Both the position numbers and the translations under genes were made by a program. A stretch of DNA of 7,762 nucleotides from a virus (lineage: Duplodnaviria; Heunggongvirae; Uroviricota; Caudoviricetes): the IMG/VR virus record IMGVR_UViG_3300011952_000013; one strand, written 5' to 3'. The notes below the pieces were generated by a model that had not been told where the DNA came from, searched no databases, and was given only the letters and a program-made list of their open reading frames with translations. Each line of letters starts with the position of its first letter. Position 1 is the stretch's first letter. Shown here one piece after another: positions 1,563 to 7,641 of this stretch.

Positions 1563-1582
1563 GGCCCGTAAGGGCTTTTTTT
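1563..1582 (+). terminator. Rho-independent terminator-like hairpin after the capsid gene: short GC stem with a GTAA (GNRA) tetraloop followed by a run of seven T.
   Basis: GCCC(1564-1567) GTAA GGGC(1572-1575), possibly extended by a G1563.T1576 wobble pair, then TTTTTTT at 1576-1582. Lies 24 nt after the capsid stop codon. Confidence 0.6.
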
Positions 1583-1593
1583 GTACCTGAAAT

Positions 1594-1612
1594 CAGCCCC
1601 TGAACGGGGCTG
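1594..1612 (+). promoter_or_regulatory. Second 7-bp perfect hairpin (CAGCCCC-TGAAC-GGGGCTG) with no T-tract, directly upstream of the Shine-Dalgarno of the next gene. Possible mRNA-stability or translation-modulating structure.
   Basis: Perfect inverted repeat 1594-1600 / 1606-1612, followed by GGAGA (1616-1620) and ATG at 1626. Confidence 0.4.
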
Positions 1613-1625
1613 TGCGGAGACAGTT

Positions 1626-1949
1626 ATGGCAAAGAATTTTGTAGAAGAAGGAAAAACGGTGGCGATTGTTGCCAGTGCAGCCATCAGCAGCGGAGAGCTG
1701 GTGCAGGTGGGTGATGTTTTTGCGGTGGCGCTGACCGATATTCCACAGGGTGAAACAGGCGACGGCATGACCGAAGGTGTGTTTATGCTGCCTAAGCTGA
1801 AAACGGATGACATGAAAACGGGTAAGAAGGTTTATCTGAAGTCCGGAAAAGTTCAGCTGACTAACAGCGGCTCTGATCCGCTGGTCGGGGTTGTCTGGGC
1901 AGATGCCGGAACCAGTGCAGAAGAAGTGCCGGTAAAACTCAATGTCTGA
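1626..1949 (+). CDS. Small (107 aa) phage head-associated protein, DUF2190-like. Function unknown; possibly a capsid decoration/cement or head-completion protein.
   Basis: ATG at 1626 is preceded by GGAGA at 5-nt spacing. The upstream ATG at 1581 offered by the ORF track lies inside the terminator T-tract and has no RBS. The N-terminus MAKNFVEEGKT and the Gly-rich beta-like composition match my recollection of DUF2190 family members. It sits between the capsid and head-tail joining genes. Its stop overlaps the next start (ATGTCTGA). Confidence 0.6.
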   Translation: MAKNFVEEGKTVAIVASAAISSGELVQVGDVFAVALTDIPQGETGDGMTEGVFMLPKLKTDDMKTGKKVYLKSGKVQLTNSGSDPLVGVVWADAGTSAEEVPVKLNV

Positions 1950-2217
1950 TCCCTTTTCCCGGCTGGCAGCGCGTATGGATGCGATCACGGTCAGAAAGAT
2001 GGGAAAGACAGCCTCGATTAATGATGTCGATATGACTGTGATCCCGGGAGAAACACTGGCAGAGCTGAATGCTCTGTCCGGACCTGCGGTCTCTCTGGTG
2101 GTGTTTTCTTCGGGATACCGCCCACGGCGCGGGGATCGCGTTGTTTATGACGGACAACAATGGACGGTCACACGGCATGAACGCTTTAACGGTAAGCCAA
2201 TGATCTTTATTGAGTAA
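1942..2217 (+). CDS. FII: Head-tail joining / head completion protein, lambda gpFII-like (91 aa).
   Basis: Start ATG at 1942 overlaps the upstream stop. The translation shows FII-like landmarks (N-terminal F..L..A...D.I..R.MG..A.I and a central RRGD motif) by eye against remembered lambda FII. Located immediately upstream of the gpZ-like gene as in lambda. Confidence 0.6.
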   Translation: MSDPFSRLAARMDAITVRKMGKTASINDVDMTVIPGETLAELNALSGPAVSLVVFSSGYRPRRGDRVVYDGQQWTVTRHERFNGKPMIFIE

Positions 2218-2819: not shown

Positions 2820-3219
2820 ACCGACATACACAAATCCGCCAGGTCGTACTGGCACGCCTTCGGGAACAGTGTGGAGACAGCGCCACGTTTTTTGACGGGC
2901 TTCCGGCATTTATTGATGCGCANNNNNNNNNNCTGCCGTGGCGGTGTGGCTGAGTGATGCTCAGTACACCGGAAAAATGACGGATGAAGATGACTGGCAG
3001 GCTGTTCTGCATATTGCCGTCTTCATCCGGGCACAGGCACCGGATTCAGAGCTGGATATGTGGATGGAGAGCACCATTTTCCCGGCCCTGAATGATGTAC
3101 CGGCACTTTCCGGACTCATCGACACCCTGAACCCACTCGGTTTTAACTATCAACGTGATAATGAGATGGCCACCTGGGCGATGGCGGAAATCACGTACCA
3201 GATCACGTACACGAATTAA
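2816..3219 (+). CDS. U: Tail terminator protein, lambda gpU-like. The reading frame is interrupted by a 10-N run (2923-2932), across which the frame appears to change (frame 2 before, frame 1 after).
   Basis: ATG at 2816 gives MNRHTQIRQVVLARLREQCGDSATFFDGLPAFIDA. After the N-run, frame 1 gives AVWLSDAQYTGKMTDEDDWQAVLHIAVFIRAQAPDSELDMWMESTIFPALNDVPALSGLIDTLNPLGFNYQRDNEMATWAMAEITYQITYTN. Both halves are collinear with remembered lambda gpU (ATFFDGRP..., AVAVYLTGAEYTG..., ELHIEVF...PDSELDAWMES...). Stop TAA at 3217-3219. Confidence 0.8.
2923..2932. other. Run of 10 N (assembly gap or masked bases) inside the gpU-like gene.
   Basis: Literal n characters in the sequence. Confidence 1.
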
Positions 3220-3229
3220 GGAGGTGGTA

Positions 3230-3973
3230 ATGACCACACCAAATCCACTGGCAAAGACGAAAGGTGCGGGGACGACGTTCTGGATGTATACCGGCAACGG
3301 CGATGCGTTTGCGAACCCTTTGTCGGACACTGACTGGCTGCGTCTTGCGATGGTGAAGGATCTGCAACCTGGCGAAATGACCGCTGATGCAGAAGATGAC
3401 ACTTATCTCGATGATGAAGATGCAGACTGGAAAACGACAACCCAGGGGCAGAAATCCGTTGGTGATACTTCGGCGACGCTGGCCTGGCGTCCGGGTGACA
3501 GCGGGCAGAAAAAACTGGTTCAGTTGTTCGACTCCGGTGAAGTCTGCGCGTTTCGTATCAAATATCCCAACGGCACTGTTGATGTTTTCCGTGGCTGGCT
3601 GAGCTCACTGGGTAAAACCATTGCCTCAAAAGACGTGATGACCCGCACTGTGAAAATCAGCGGTGTGGGGCGTCCGTATCTGGCAGAGGAAGGCACTGAA
3701 ACCGTGAGCGTTACCGGGCTGACAGTATCACCGGCGTCTGCCAGTGTAAAAGTGGGAGCAACCACCACGCTGACCTTTACAGTAAAACCTGACGGAGCCA
3801 GTGACAAAGCGATCAGTGTGCATTCGTCAGATCCACAGACTGCCACGGTTACCCTGAACGGACTTGTGGCCACGGTAAAAGGCGTGAAGCAGGGCAGTGT
3901 CAGCATTGTGGGCATGACCGCTGACGGGAATTTTGTGGCTGTGGCTGCGGTGACTGTCAGCGCCGCAGGTTAA
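3230..3973 (+). CDS. V: Major tail tube protein, lambda gpV-like (247 aa), with a C-terminal Ig-like (Big_2-type) domain.
   Basis: Strong RBS AGGAGG (3219-3224) 5 nt upstream of ATG 3230; the ORF-track start at 3155 has no RBS and overlaps U. The translation MTTPNPLAKTKGAGTTFWMYTGNGDAFANPLSD...YLDDEDADW...NGTVDVFRGW is closely collinear with remembered lambda gpV. The C-terminal ~90 aa are T/V/S/A-rich in a beta-sandwich-like pattern typical of Big_2 domains. Confidence 0.93.
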   Translation: MTTPNPLAKTKGAGTTFWMYTGNGDAFANPLSDTDWLRLAMVKDLQPGEMTADAEDDTYLDDEDADWKTTTQGQKSVGDTSATLAWRPGDSGQKKLVQLFDSGEVCAFRIKYPNGTVDVFRGWLSSLGKTIASKDVMTRTVKISGVGRPYLAEEGTETVSVTGLTVSPASASVKVGATTTLTFTVKPDGASDKAISVHSSDPQTATVTLNGLVATVKGVKQGSVSIVGMTADGNFVAVAAVTVSAAG

Positions 3974-4017: not shown

Positions 4018-4033
4018 GCAGGTGGAGAACATG

Positions 4034-4420
4034 ATGTTTCTGAAACAGGGCACGTTTAATTATGAAAAACAGTCCGTGGTGCTCAGTGAGCTGTCCGGGC
4101 TGCAGAGAATTGAATATCTGGCGTTTGTTCAGCAGCGAACGGCAAAGTTTGATGCCGGTGAGGGAGAACTGCCGGAGGCTGAACGACAGATTGCTTTTCT
4201 GCGGATGGGGATGGATATCAATGCCTGGCTGGTTTCCCGCTCACTGTGGAATGCGGATCAGTCTAAGGATGTAGAGACGCTTTGCGCATCCGTTATTACA
4301 ACATGGTCGTATGATGCCCTGGGTGCGGGGGCGGAGATGGTTCTGTCGCTGAGCGGTATGGGGGCCATTGATAATGCCGGGGGTGATGAGCATGAGTCGC
4401 TGACGCCGGAAAAGTCCTGA
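4034..4420 (+). CDS. G: Tail assembly chaperone, lambda gpG-like (128 aa if started at 4034; ATG at 4031 is an alternative).
   Basis: GGTGGAG (4021-4027) precedes ATG 4031/4034. The product from 4034, MFLKQGTFNYEKQSVVLSELSGLQRIEYLAF, is collinear with remembered lambda gpG (MFLK...TLSELSALQRIEHLA). The ORF-track start at 3992 lies inside the terminator stem. Stop TGA at 4418-4420. Confidence 0.85.
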   Translation: MFLKQGTFNYEKQSVVLSELSGLQRIEYLAFVQQRTAKFDAGEGELPEAERQIAFLRMGMDINAWLVSRSLWNADQSKDVETLCASVITTWSYDALGAGAEMVLSLSGMGAIDNAGGDEHESLTPEKS

Positions 4421-4710
4421 CGCGGGAAATGCAGTTTGTCATGCGGCTTGCCCGGGAGTTCCGACGGGCAGACTGGCGGCGGATGCTGTCGGAAATGTCG
4501 GCCACTGAGCTTGGTGAGTGGGGCGATTATTTCCGGATGCAGAGCTTCAGTGATGTGTGGATGGATGCGCAGTTTGCCTCGCTGAAGGCATTGATCGTGA
4601 GAATGGTGTCCGGCAGCAGTGATGCTGCGGTGGCTGATTTCAGCCTTTTACCGGAAGAGAACGGGATACCGGAGCGAACGGACGANNNNNNNNNNCGGAC
4701 GAAGAACTGA
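4396..4710 (+). CDS. T: gpT-like segment of the tail assembly chaperone, in the -1 frame relative to G. Probably expressed only as a G-T fusion by programmed -1 ribosomal frameshifting near 4408-4414. Contains a 10-N run (4686-4695), so the 3' end is uncertain.
   Basis: Frame 1 is open from 4396 (upstream in-frame TGA at 4393-4395) and overlaps the last 7 codons of G. An A-rich slippery-like heptamer G_GAA_AAG sits at 4408-4414. Position between G and the tape measure gene matches the conserved G/GT arrangement of lambda-like tail operons. The ATG at 4429 has no convincing RBS. Confidence 0.65.
   Translation, partial: VADAGKVLTREMQFVMRLAREFRRADWRRMLSEMSATELGEWGDYFRMQSFSDVWMDAQFASLKALIVRMVSGSSDAAVADFSLLPEENGIPERTDXXXXRTKN
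4686..4695. other. Run of 10 N near the 3' end of the gpT-like frame, flanked on both sides by the heptamer CGGACGA.
   Basis: Literal n characters; sequence reads aaCGGACGA-N10-CGGACGAag. Confidence 1.
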
Positions 4711-4746: not shown

Positions 4747-7641
4747 ATGGACCAGATAGCCAACCTGGTCATTGATTTGGGGATTGATGCGGCAGAGTTT
4801 AAAAATGAAATCCCCCGTATCAAAAACCTTCTGAATGGTGCAGCCAGCGATGCAGAACGGTCTTCTGCCCGTATGCAGCGTTTTATGGAGCGTCAGACTC
4901 AGGCCGCCCGGCAGACAACGCAGGCGGCGTCTTCGGCTGCAACAGCCGCATCCGTCCATGCGCAGACAGTGGAGAAGAACGCACAGGCTCATGAACGCAT
5001 GGCCCGCGAGGTGGAGAAAACCCGCCAGCGCATGGAGGCGCTGAGCCAGAAAATGCGCGAGGAACAGGCGCAGGCCATGGCTCTGGCGGAGGCTCAGGAT
5101 AAAGCGGCTGCTGCGTTTTATCGTCAGATTGACAGTGTGAAACAGGCCAGTGCGGGGCTGCAGGAATTACAGCGTATTCAGCAGCAGATCCGACAGGCCA
5201 GAAACAGTGGCGGGATTGGTCAGCAGGATTATCTGGCGCTGATTTCTGAGGTTACGGCGAAAACCCGTGTTCTTACACAGGCTGAGGAAGAGGCTACCCG
5301 ACAGAAAGTGGCGTTTATCCGTCAGCTTAAAGAGCAGGCAACCCGCCAGAATCTTTCTTCTTCTGAGTTGCTTCGTGCTAAGGCTGCCCAGCTGGGGGTA
5401 AGCAGTGCTGCAGAAGTGTATATCCNNNNNNNNNNACCGAAAGGCAGGATGCTTGGCGGGGTTATTGGCGGTATTGCCGCGGCTGTCTATGGTCTGGGTA
5501 AAGCCTGGTATGACGGTCAGAAGGAGGGGGAAGAATTTAACCGCCAGCTGTCGCTGACGGGGCATTATGCCGGAGTCACTGCCGGGCAGCTGTGGACGCT
5601 CAGTCGTGCTATTTCCGGGAATGGTATCACGCAACATGCTGCAGCCGGTGCGCTGGCTCAGGTGGTGGGTAGTGGTGCATTTCGTGGAAACGATATCGGT
5701 ATGGTGGCGAGAGCTGCCGCACAGATGGAGCGATCGGTTGGCCAGTCGATCAGCGATACCATAAATCAGTTTAAGCGGCTGAAGGATGATCCTGTAAATG
5801 CCGCGAAGGCTCTGGACAATGAGCTGCATTTTCTTACTGCCACTCAGCTTGAGCAGATACGTGTCCTTGGGGATCAGGGACGGTCCAGTGATGCTGCACG
5901 GATAGCCATGTCTGCACTGGCAGAGGAAACCGGTCGGCGTACTGCGGATATTGATAATAACCTCAATGCGCTTGGTAGTACGCTGAAGTATCTGTCTGAT
6001 TTGTGGAGTCGTTTCTGGGATGCGGCCATGAATATTGGTCGTGAAGACTCGCTGGATGAACAAATTGCCGCTTTACAGGAGAAAGTGTCGCGGGCGAAAA
6101 GACTCCCCTGGACGGCATCATCTTCTCAGGTTGAATACGATCAGCAGCGTCTTAACGATCTTCAGGAGAAAAAACGCCAGAAGGATTTGCAGGATGCAAA
6201 AGAGCAGGCAGAGCGGAATTATCAGGAGCAACAGAAACGCCGTAATGCTGAAAATGCTGCACTGAACCGGATGAATGAAACTGAAGCAGCACGGCATCAG
6301 CGTGAAATTGCGCGTATTAATGCCATGCAGTACGCCGATCAGGCTGTCAGGGATGCGGCGATACAACGTGAAAATGAACGTTACGAGAAAGCCCTGGCAT
6401 CCGGTAAGAAAAAAACACGCGAAACCCGTAATGATGAGGCCACCCGCTTATTGCTGCAGTACAGTCAGCAACAGGCACAGGTGGAAGGGCAGATTGCTGC
6501 TGCAAGACAGTCAGCAGGCATTGCCACTGACAGGATGACAGAAGCGCATAAACAGCTTCTGGCTCTGCAGCAGCGCATCAGCGACCTGGACGGGAAAAAA
6601 CTGACGGCAGATGAAAAGAGTGTGCTTGCCCGTAAAGATGAACTGATTCAGGCATTGACGCTGCTGGATGTAAAACAGCAGGAGCTTCAGAAACAGACGG
6701 CACTCAACGAGCTGAAGAAAAAAACAATTCAGCTGACCAGTCAACTGGCTGAAGAAGAGCGCGCTCAGCGTCAGCAACATGACCTGGATATCGCCACGGT
6801 GGGTATGGGTGATCAGCAGCGGCAGCGATATCAGGTACAACTGAGTCTTCGCCAGAAATACCAGCAACAGCTGGAGCAGTTGAGGCGGGATAGTGAGCAG
6901 AAAGGGACATATAACACGGATGACTACAGAAAGGCCGAGCAGGCGCTGACGGAGAGCCTGAACCGACAACTGAGTGAGAATCGCCGTTACTGGCAACAGC
7001 TTGAAATTGCTCAGGGTGACTGGAAAAACGGAGTCCTGCGTGCACTCCAGAATGTCACTGAGAATGCGGATAACACAGCCGGGACAGTGGAACAGTTGTT
7101 CACGTCTGCGTTCAGTAGCATGAGTGACTGGCTGGCGACATTCTGTACTACAGGCAAACTCAATTTCAAATCCTTCACCTCTTCTGTGCTGTCAGATATG
7201 TCCAGAATCATGGCTCAGATAGCTTTAATGAAAGCGGTAAAAGGCATTGCTTCCGCGCTGCCTTTTGATTTTGTAGCTAATGCTGATGGCGGTGTTTATC
7301 AGTCGGCTGATTTGAGTCGCTACAGTGGCACGGTGGTTAACCGTCCGACGTTTTTTGCTTTTGCAAAAGGCGCGGGTGTGATGGGGGAAGCTGGGCCTGA
7401 AGCCATTCTGCCACTGCGTCGTGGTGCTGACGGTAAGCTGGGGGTTGTGGCGGATATTGGTGGTTCAGGTATGGCGATGTTTGCCCCGCAGTACAACATC
7501 GAGATCAATAACGATGGCACGAACGGGCAGATAGGTCCGGCTGCCCTGAAGGTGGTTTATGACCTTGGGAAAAAAGCGGCAGCGGACTTTATGCAACAGC
7601 AGGCCCGTGATGGTGGTCGGTTAAGTGGAGCATATCGGTAA
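4747..7641 (+). CDS. H: Tail length tape measure protein, lambda gpH-like (964 aa), with a 10-N run at 5427-5436 inside the gene.
   Basis: GGAGG (4733-4737) precedes ATG 4747; the ORF-track start at 4717 is a TTG with no RBS. The N-terminus MDQIANLVIDLGIDAAEF resembles lambda H (MAEPVGDLVVDLSLDAARF). There is a long Q/E/R/A-rich coiled-coil-like central region. The C-terminus NNDGTNGQIGPAALKVVYD...DGG matches the conserved lambda H C-terminus. Stop overlaps the gpM start (TAATG). Confidence 0.93.
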   Translation: MDQIANLVIDLGIDAAEFKNEIPRIKNLLNGAASDAERSSARMQRFMERQTQAARQTTQAASSAATAASVHAQTVEKNAQAHERMAREVEKTRQRMEALSQKMREEQAQAMALAEAQDKAAAAFYRQIDSVKQASAGLQELQRIQQQIRQARNSGGIGQQDYLALISEVTAKTRVLTQAEEEATRQKVAFIRQLKEQATRQNLSSSELLRAKAAQLGVSSAAEVYIXXXXPKGRMLGGVIGGIAAAVYGLGKAWYDGQKEGEEFNRQLSLTGHYAGVTAGQLWTLSRAISGNGITQHAAAGALAQVVGSGAFRGNDIGMVARAAAQMERSVGQSISDTINQFKRLKDDPVNAAKALDNELHFLTATQLEQIRVLGDQGRSSDAARIAMSALAEETGRRTADIDNNLNALGSTLKYLSDLWSRFWDAAMNIGREDSLDEQIAALQEKVSRAKRLPWTASSSQVEYDQQRLNDLQEKKRQKDLQDAKEQAERNYQEQQKRRNAENAALNRMNETEAARHQREIARINAMQYADQAVRDAAIQRENERYEKALASGKKKTRETRNDEATRLLLQYSQQQAQVEGQIAAARQSAGIATDRMTEAHKQLLALQQRISDLDGKKLTADEKSVLARKDELIQALTLLDVKQQELQKQTALNELKKKTIQLTSQLAEEERAQRQQHDLDIATVGMGDQQRQRYQVQLSLRQKYQQQLEQLRRDSEQKGTYNTDDYRKAEQALTESLNRQLSENRRYWQQLEIAQGDWKNGVLRALQNVTENADNTAGTVEQLFTSAFSSMSDWLATFCTTGKLNFKSFTSSVLSDMSRIMAQIALMKAVKGIASALPFDFVANADGGVYQSADLSRYSGTVVNRPTFFAFAKGAGVMGEAGPEAILPLRRGADGKLGVVADIGGSGMAMFAPQYNIEINNDGTNGQIGPAALKVVYDLGKKAAADFMQQQARDGGRLSGAYR
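5427..5436. other. Run of 10 N inside the tape measure gene; the reading frame is preserved across it.
   Basis: Literal n characters; homology to lambda H is on the same frame on both sides. Confidence 1.

Follow-up and report, generated by a model that had tools for sequence, protein, structure and literature searches.

The filled head of a tailed phage is stabilised by the decoration protein gpD in lambda and by covalent cross-links in HK97, and the N-terminal arm of gpD is ordered against the capsid. Lambda head genes follow the order C/Nu3, D, E, FI, FII, Z and onwards, and FI, a chaperone of DNA packaging, is not a virion component. Other decoration proteins include gp48 of phiCD508, a myovirus of the Gram-positive bacterium Clostridioides difficile, which was solved on the capsid as a trimer present in 420 copies with its N-terminal arm resolved (PDB 9GAY/9GAZ/9GB0). 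Trimers of gp18 of Haloferax tailed virus 1 (HFTV1) lie on the outer surface at trimeric capsid-protein interfaces and are described as capsid-stabilising (PMC12494034). For Gifsy-2, a passage of PMC8538268 that cites Effantin et al. reports a trimeric cement protein at the capsid 3-fold axes. Here we analysed a gene of this kind in the IMG/VR virus record IMGVR_UViG_3300011952_000013 (Caudoviricetes). The window, meaning the whole stretch of DNA analysed, is 7,762 nt of one strand, and the gene lies at 1626-1949. It very probably encodes a capsid cement (decoration) protein that is trimeric at 3-fold and quasi-3-fold sites and stabilises the filled head.

Family assignment

The protein matched the Pfam family PF09956 at 74 bits against a gathering cut-off of 24, with residues 6-105 aligned to positions 1-103 of the 103-position profile. 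A sequence-only reading of the window had called the protein DUF2190-like, and the profile search bears this out: PF09956 is the former DUF2190, which Pfam has renamed Phage_cement_2 ('Phage cement protein'). PHROG 122, 'head decoration', matched over the complete protein (E 4.6e-47, 159.6 bits; residues 1-107 to positions 1-109 of 109), and some near-identical phage records (98-99% identical sequences) already annotate the gene as 'head decoration'. The same reading had held the family to be functionally undefined, which is out of date. PF09956, PHROG 122 and the capsid-bound structure of phiCD508 gp48 place the protein confidently in a characterised family with a different role, the outcome that the sequence-only reading had named as refuting it, so the cement role is already known for the family and the gene is not an uncharacterised one.

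Other families gave less. The match to PF22758 (Phage_cement), at 24.4 bits, was below the threshold of 27, so gp6 of cyanophage Pam3 and gp24 of Pseudomonas phage E217 (PF22758) and HFTV1 gp18, which are longer (136-211 residues), represent sister families rather than the same family. PF02924 (HDPD, the lambda gpD family) gave no match at E <= 0.01, and NCBIfam had no model for the cement protein. Searches of the literature for 'DUF2190' and 'PF09956' returned incidental mentions only. With a profile of close relatives, 3864 cluster representatives (50% identity clusters) were found at E <= 0.001 among 1.84 billion proteins. The RefSeq name is still 'DUF2190 family protein', and some homologues carry the labels 'RecA/RadA recombinase' or 'membrane protein'.

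Predicted fold and solved relatives

The predicted 107-residue monomer is all-beta. Structure prediction and comparison with known decoration and cement proteins, a check that the sequence-only reading had proposed, put phiCD508 gp48 at the top of the fold matches listed, with a score of 11.3 and a root-mean-square deviation of 2.2 A over 98 residues; the fold is thus shared with a solved family member. The matches that followed were HFTV1 gp18 (10.5), the Pam3 cement protein (9.0), Sf11 gp40 (8.9), the TW1 capsid-stabilising protein (8.6), XM1 (7.7), FCWL1 (7.4), the phi29 head-fibre base and E217 gp24 (6.8 each), the BB1 decorator proteins P04 and P03 (6.7 and 6.2), YSD1_16 (6.6), the Mycobacterium phages Adjutor and Patience (6.1 and 6.0), Sf14 (5.4) and lambda gpD (5.0).

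A diverse profile of 108 members reached phiCD508 gp48 in a sequence search of the PDB with an E value of 4e-8, and the aligned gp48 fragment scored 60.6 bits on PF09956, so the family has a solved, capsid-bound member. PDB searches with the single protein or with a 12-sequence profile returned chance matches only (LptE and others; E >= 0.16).

The first 10 residues are the sole low-confidence part of the monomer model, with a mean pLDDT (the per-residue confidence of the model) of 52 and values below 50 for residues 1-4. Two of these residues nevertheless rank with the best-conserved positions in the family: of 108 diverse homologues, which average 31% column identity, 94% share N4 and 98% share G9. 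Conservation combined with low confidence would suit an arm that gains its order only on contact with the capsid, as is reported of the gp48 arm.

Comparison with described systems

Like phiCD508 gp48, the cement protein belongs to PF09956, but the two are only 18-22% identical and gp48 has about 15-20 additional N-terminal residues. Judged by its number, which precedes that of the capsid protein gp49, the gp48 gene is presumably upstream of the capsid gene; the cement gene of the window is downstream.

STM1034 of Gifsy-2 is much closer. It has the same length of 107 residues, shares 60% of 106 aligned residues with the cement protein, reaches 82.5 bits on PF09956 and has the identical gene order, including an 8-nt overlap with the next gene; it differs in its GTG start codon and its Salmonella host. 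No other small gene of the Gifsy-2 head module is without an assignment, and we infer that the product of STM1034 accounts for the 3-fold density. The capsid map of Gifsy-2 is reportedly of low resolution, and a literature search for the identity of the Gifsy-2 decoration gene yielded secondary citations alone.

Lambda gpD and SHP of phage 21 (HDPD) have no detectable sequence similarity to the cement protein, and hhalign of the 108-sequence family profile gave a probability of 0.1% against gpD and likewise 0.1% against lambda FI. The absence of sequence resemblance to FI or D, earlier judged by eye, is thus confirmed. Lambda D lies before E, whereas the cement gene lies after the capsid gene, and its capsid partner is a Phage_capsid_4-type protease-scaffold-capsid fusion instead of gpE. 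With FI, the cement gene shares the position between the capsid gene and FII and nothing else, and FI is not among the fold matches listed. Placing the gene in the FI position, as the sequence-only reading did, is therefore correct as gene order, but its description as a 'head-completion slot' is misleading: on fold, family and linkage to the capsid gene, the protein is most probably the counterpart of gpD, and not of FI or of a connector protein.

Gene order and distribution

The complete window is 97-99% identical to the lambdoid Escherichia coli phages HannyBb, PhiR55_1, Tritos, cdtI and mEp460. Of 5426 complete E. coli genomes, 1852 contained the 900 bases around the cement gene, nearly always on the chromosome, which makes the prophage module a very common one. 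In Tritos, HannyBb and Gifsy-2, the small and large terminase genes are followed by a W-like adaptor, the portal and a ClpP-like protease/scaffold/major-capsid fusion, and then by the cement gene, the FII-like gene, Z, U, V, G, T and H. In the window, as in these three phages, the cement gene is thus a head-module gene adjacent to that of the major capsid protein. The part of the fusion protein encoded in the window, so annotated in all three, matched NCBIfam NF045540 at 730 bits (profile positions 139-651 of 652) as well as Pfam Phage_capsid_4, and it is the predicted binding partner of the cement protein. No separate D-like gene precedes the capsid gene in this head module. The features are listed in Table 1.

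Table 1. Features at the capsid-cement-FII junction of the window.
Feature	Position	Strand	Remarks
ClpP-like protease/scaffold/major capsid fusion gene, C-terminal ~510 codons	1..1539	+	gene start lies 5' of the window
Stem-loop 1	1563-1582	+	GGCCC-GTAA-GGGC followed by seven T; terminator-like
Stem-loop 2	1594-1612	+	CAGCCCC-TGAAC-GGGGCTG; just 5' of the Shine-Dalgarno sequence
Shine-Dalgarno sequence GGAG	1616..1619	+	6 nt 5' of ATG 1626; read from the sequence
Capsid cement/decoration protein gene (very probable)	1626..1949	+	107 aa, MAKNFVEEGK...VPVKLNV; Pfam Phage_cement_2 (formerly DUF2190)
N-terminal 10 residues, predicted flexible arm	1626..1655 (codons)	+	low model confidence
FII-like head-tail joining protein gene	1942..2217	+	ATG 1942-1944 lies within the 3' end of the cement gene (ATGTCTGA)

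A closer-alignment search for related loci found only loci that were 97-100% identical, and the diversity of contexts was instead taken from the contigs encoding 7 diverse family members from metagenomes and genomes. In each of the seven, a large gene (460-722 aa) directly precedes the cement gene; in five, which are all those with annotation, the large gene encodes Phage_capsid_4 and often a protease domain as well. Directly 3' of the cement gene there is usually a gene of the FII type (Phage_attach or 'Gifsy-2' family). The capsid-cement-FII arrangement is kept with lambda-like tails and also with contractile tails having a P2-type baseplate. The head cassette moves as a unit, as is expected of a protein that fits a particular capsid lattice.

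Some homologues depart from the single-domain form. Five (P0076, P0034, P0041, P0053 and P0042) are chimeric or mis-called products in which a cement part is joined to unrelated sequence, for example Ail/Lom-like (PF06316/PF13505) or a tail chaperone (PF06894); they are probably artefacts of assembly or gene calling and are best excluded from alignments, and P0076 was left out of those used here. Tandem fusions of the cement domain do occur in nature. P0178 (L005, 5001-6693) has three diverged Phage_cement_2 domains in 333 aa, possibly a single-chain trimer, and is followed by a second cement gene of 228 aa in a head module with the same portal/capsid-fusion/FII order and a contractile tail. 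Several two-domain versions were seen, and P0197, P0239 and P0241 are also tandem fusions.

Translation start and upstream spacer

The open reading frame (ORF) of the cement gene, confirmed as real, runs on the + strand from ATG 1626 to TGA 1947-1949. Cement homologues across the family share the N-terminus M-A-K-N, so ATG 1626 is the start, and not the upstream TTG 1581 of the Tritos record. The GGAG, a good Shine-Dalgarno sequence, has the same position in Tritos and is shifted by 1-2 columns in Gifsy-2. An ORF of 131 aa on the opposite strand (1593-1988) matched no family, and we regard it as a shadow ORF.

The spacer between the capsid and cement genes (1540-1625, 86 nt) contains the two stem-loops of Table 1, detected by a scan for terminator-like sequences and by RNA folding. 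Its fold z-score was only -1.66, and the window contained no match to an Rfam family. The first stem is retained in Gifsy-2, where its loop differs, and the second is replaced there by an unrelated hairpin of 7 bp. Of 8 diverse loci, 7 have GC-rich hairpins in the corresponding spacer. Such hairpins could stabilise the transcript or set the ratio of capsid to cement protein.

Overlap with the FII-like gene

The FII-like protein matched PF13856 (the 'Gifsy-2' family) at 63.6 bits, Phage_attach (PF05354) weakly, and PHROG 153; in Tritos its gene is annotated as Hc1 head completion. The Pfam description of its family ('ATP-binding sugar transporter from pro-phage') and its RefSeq label ('DNA breaking-rejoining protein') are both misleading.

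As the sequence-only reading had noted, the stop codon of the cement gene is embedded in the start of the FII-like gene: the two overlap by 8 nt as ATGTCTGA, with the TGA inside it. The overlap with the FII-type gene is also 8 nt in Gifsy-2 and in one diverse locus (L006), and 4 nt in another (L090); two further loci (L088 and L091) have the FII-type start 1-3 nt past the end of the cement gene. No recognisable Shine-Dalgarno sequence was present in the 20 nt 5' of the FII-like start, so translation of the FII-like gene probably depends on ribosomes that finish the cement gene. The overlap thus suggests translational coupling, as proposed, but the stoichiometric co-production proposed with it is unlikely: by analogy with gp48, a head would need about 420 cement subunits, against about six FII-type subunits in lambda. 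Inefficient re-initiation at the FII-like start would fit better than a 1:1 output.

Proposed role in head assembly

By homology with the solved relatives, which are capsid-bound trimers, the cement protein would act late in the assembly of the head. The protease-scaffold-capsid fusion would assemble into a T=7 procapsid and be trimmed by its own protease, and the shell would expand during DNA packaging. After expansion, trimers of the 107-residue all-beta protein would bind to the outer surface at the 3-fold and quasi-3-fold positions, where three capsomers meet; a head would then carry about 140 trimers, or about 420 copies, if the number follows that of gp48. The compact beta core would lie over the junction and the conserved N-terminal arm would reach into the interface between capsid subunits, so that the trimers might clamp neighbouring capsomers and stabilise the filled head against the pressure of the DNA. 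As the cassette has neither FI nor a separate gpD gene, the protein could also couple expansion and stabilisation to head completion. This addition is very unlikely, but would explain why the cement gene consistently abuts or overlaps the FII-like gene.

Alternative explanations

A functional replacement of FI, that is, a non-structural packaging accessory that helps terminase to dock on the prohead and is absent from the virion, would agree with the position of the gene between the capsid and FII-like genes, and the head modules of Tritos, HannyBb and Gifsy-2 have no gene annotated as an FI homologue. We consider it highly improbable, since neither the hhalign comparison nor the fold matches listed connect the protein with FI; the strong matches are capsid-surface proteins and the profile assignments are cement and decoration families. 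It would also leave the decoration role unfilled, as there is no other gpD-type gene, in a capsid type that is reported to carry such a protein. A helper of assembly or scaffolding on the procapsid, removed before maturation, is very doubtful. Its tight linkage to the capsid gene and one structural neighbour in BFVD labelled 'scaffolding protein' (from Mycobacterium phage BigNuz) agree with such a role, but the upstream fusion already has a scaffold-like segment and the relatives of the cement protein sit on mature capsids.

The match to the phi29 head-fibre base recalls a fibre anchor or surface-display module like gp8.5, serving adhesion rather than stabilisation. This is quite unlikely, as the cement domain fills residues 6-105 of the 107, which leaves no room for a fibre or display domain, and gp48 and gp18, the nearest relatives with solved structures, are trimers that simply stabilise the capsid. 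Virtually no credence can be given to a fragment of a RecA/RadA-type recombinase, which is known from database names on some DUF2190 homologues ('predicted RecA/RadA family phage recombinase', 'recombinase RecA'): the predicted product is a 107-residue all-beta domain encoded in a head-assembly module, Pfam and NCBIfam gave no recombinase or ATPase family match, and no RecA-like structure is among the fold matches listed. A capsid cement protein thus remains the preferred reading.

Other features of the window

Profile matches support the gene order given above: besides NF045540, the Pfam families matched in the window were Phage_capsid_4, the 'Gifsy-2' family, Minor_tail_Z, Phage_tail_U, Phage_TTP_12 with Big_2, Phage_TAC_2 and Phage_tail_T. 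The major tail protein gene (3230-3973; lambda V-like, Phage_TTP_12) encodes a C-terminal Big_2 Ig-like domain, as in lambda gpV. The G-like gene (4031-4420) and the T-like ORF (4429-4710) are offset by -1, like the programmed frameshift of lambda G/GT. The slippery GGGAAAG of lambda is absent at the G/T junction, its sole copy in the window being at 2001; two codons ahead of the G stop, at 4408-4414, is an in-frame G GAA AAG. Three runs of exactly 10 N occur at 2923-2932 (region of the U-like gene), 4686-4695 (T-like gene) and 5426-5435 (tape-measure gene). They resemble masking or assembly gaps and break up ORFs, such as those called at 2804-2953 and 2938-3219.

Implications

The finding is mostly corrective: the gene is best regarded as the gpD-type cement gene of lambdoid heads built from a ClpP-scaffold-capsid fusion, and not an unknown gene in the FI slot. 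The position of a gene in the lambda order is no predictor of its function when head modules have been swapped. Consistent annotation is of practical use because this head type is common, while 'DUF2190' and recombinase names persist in the databases.
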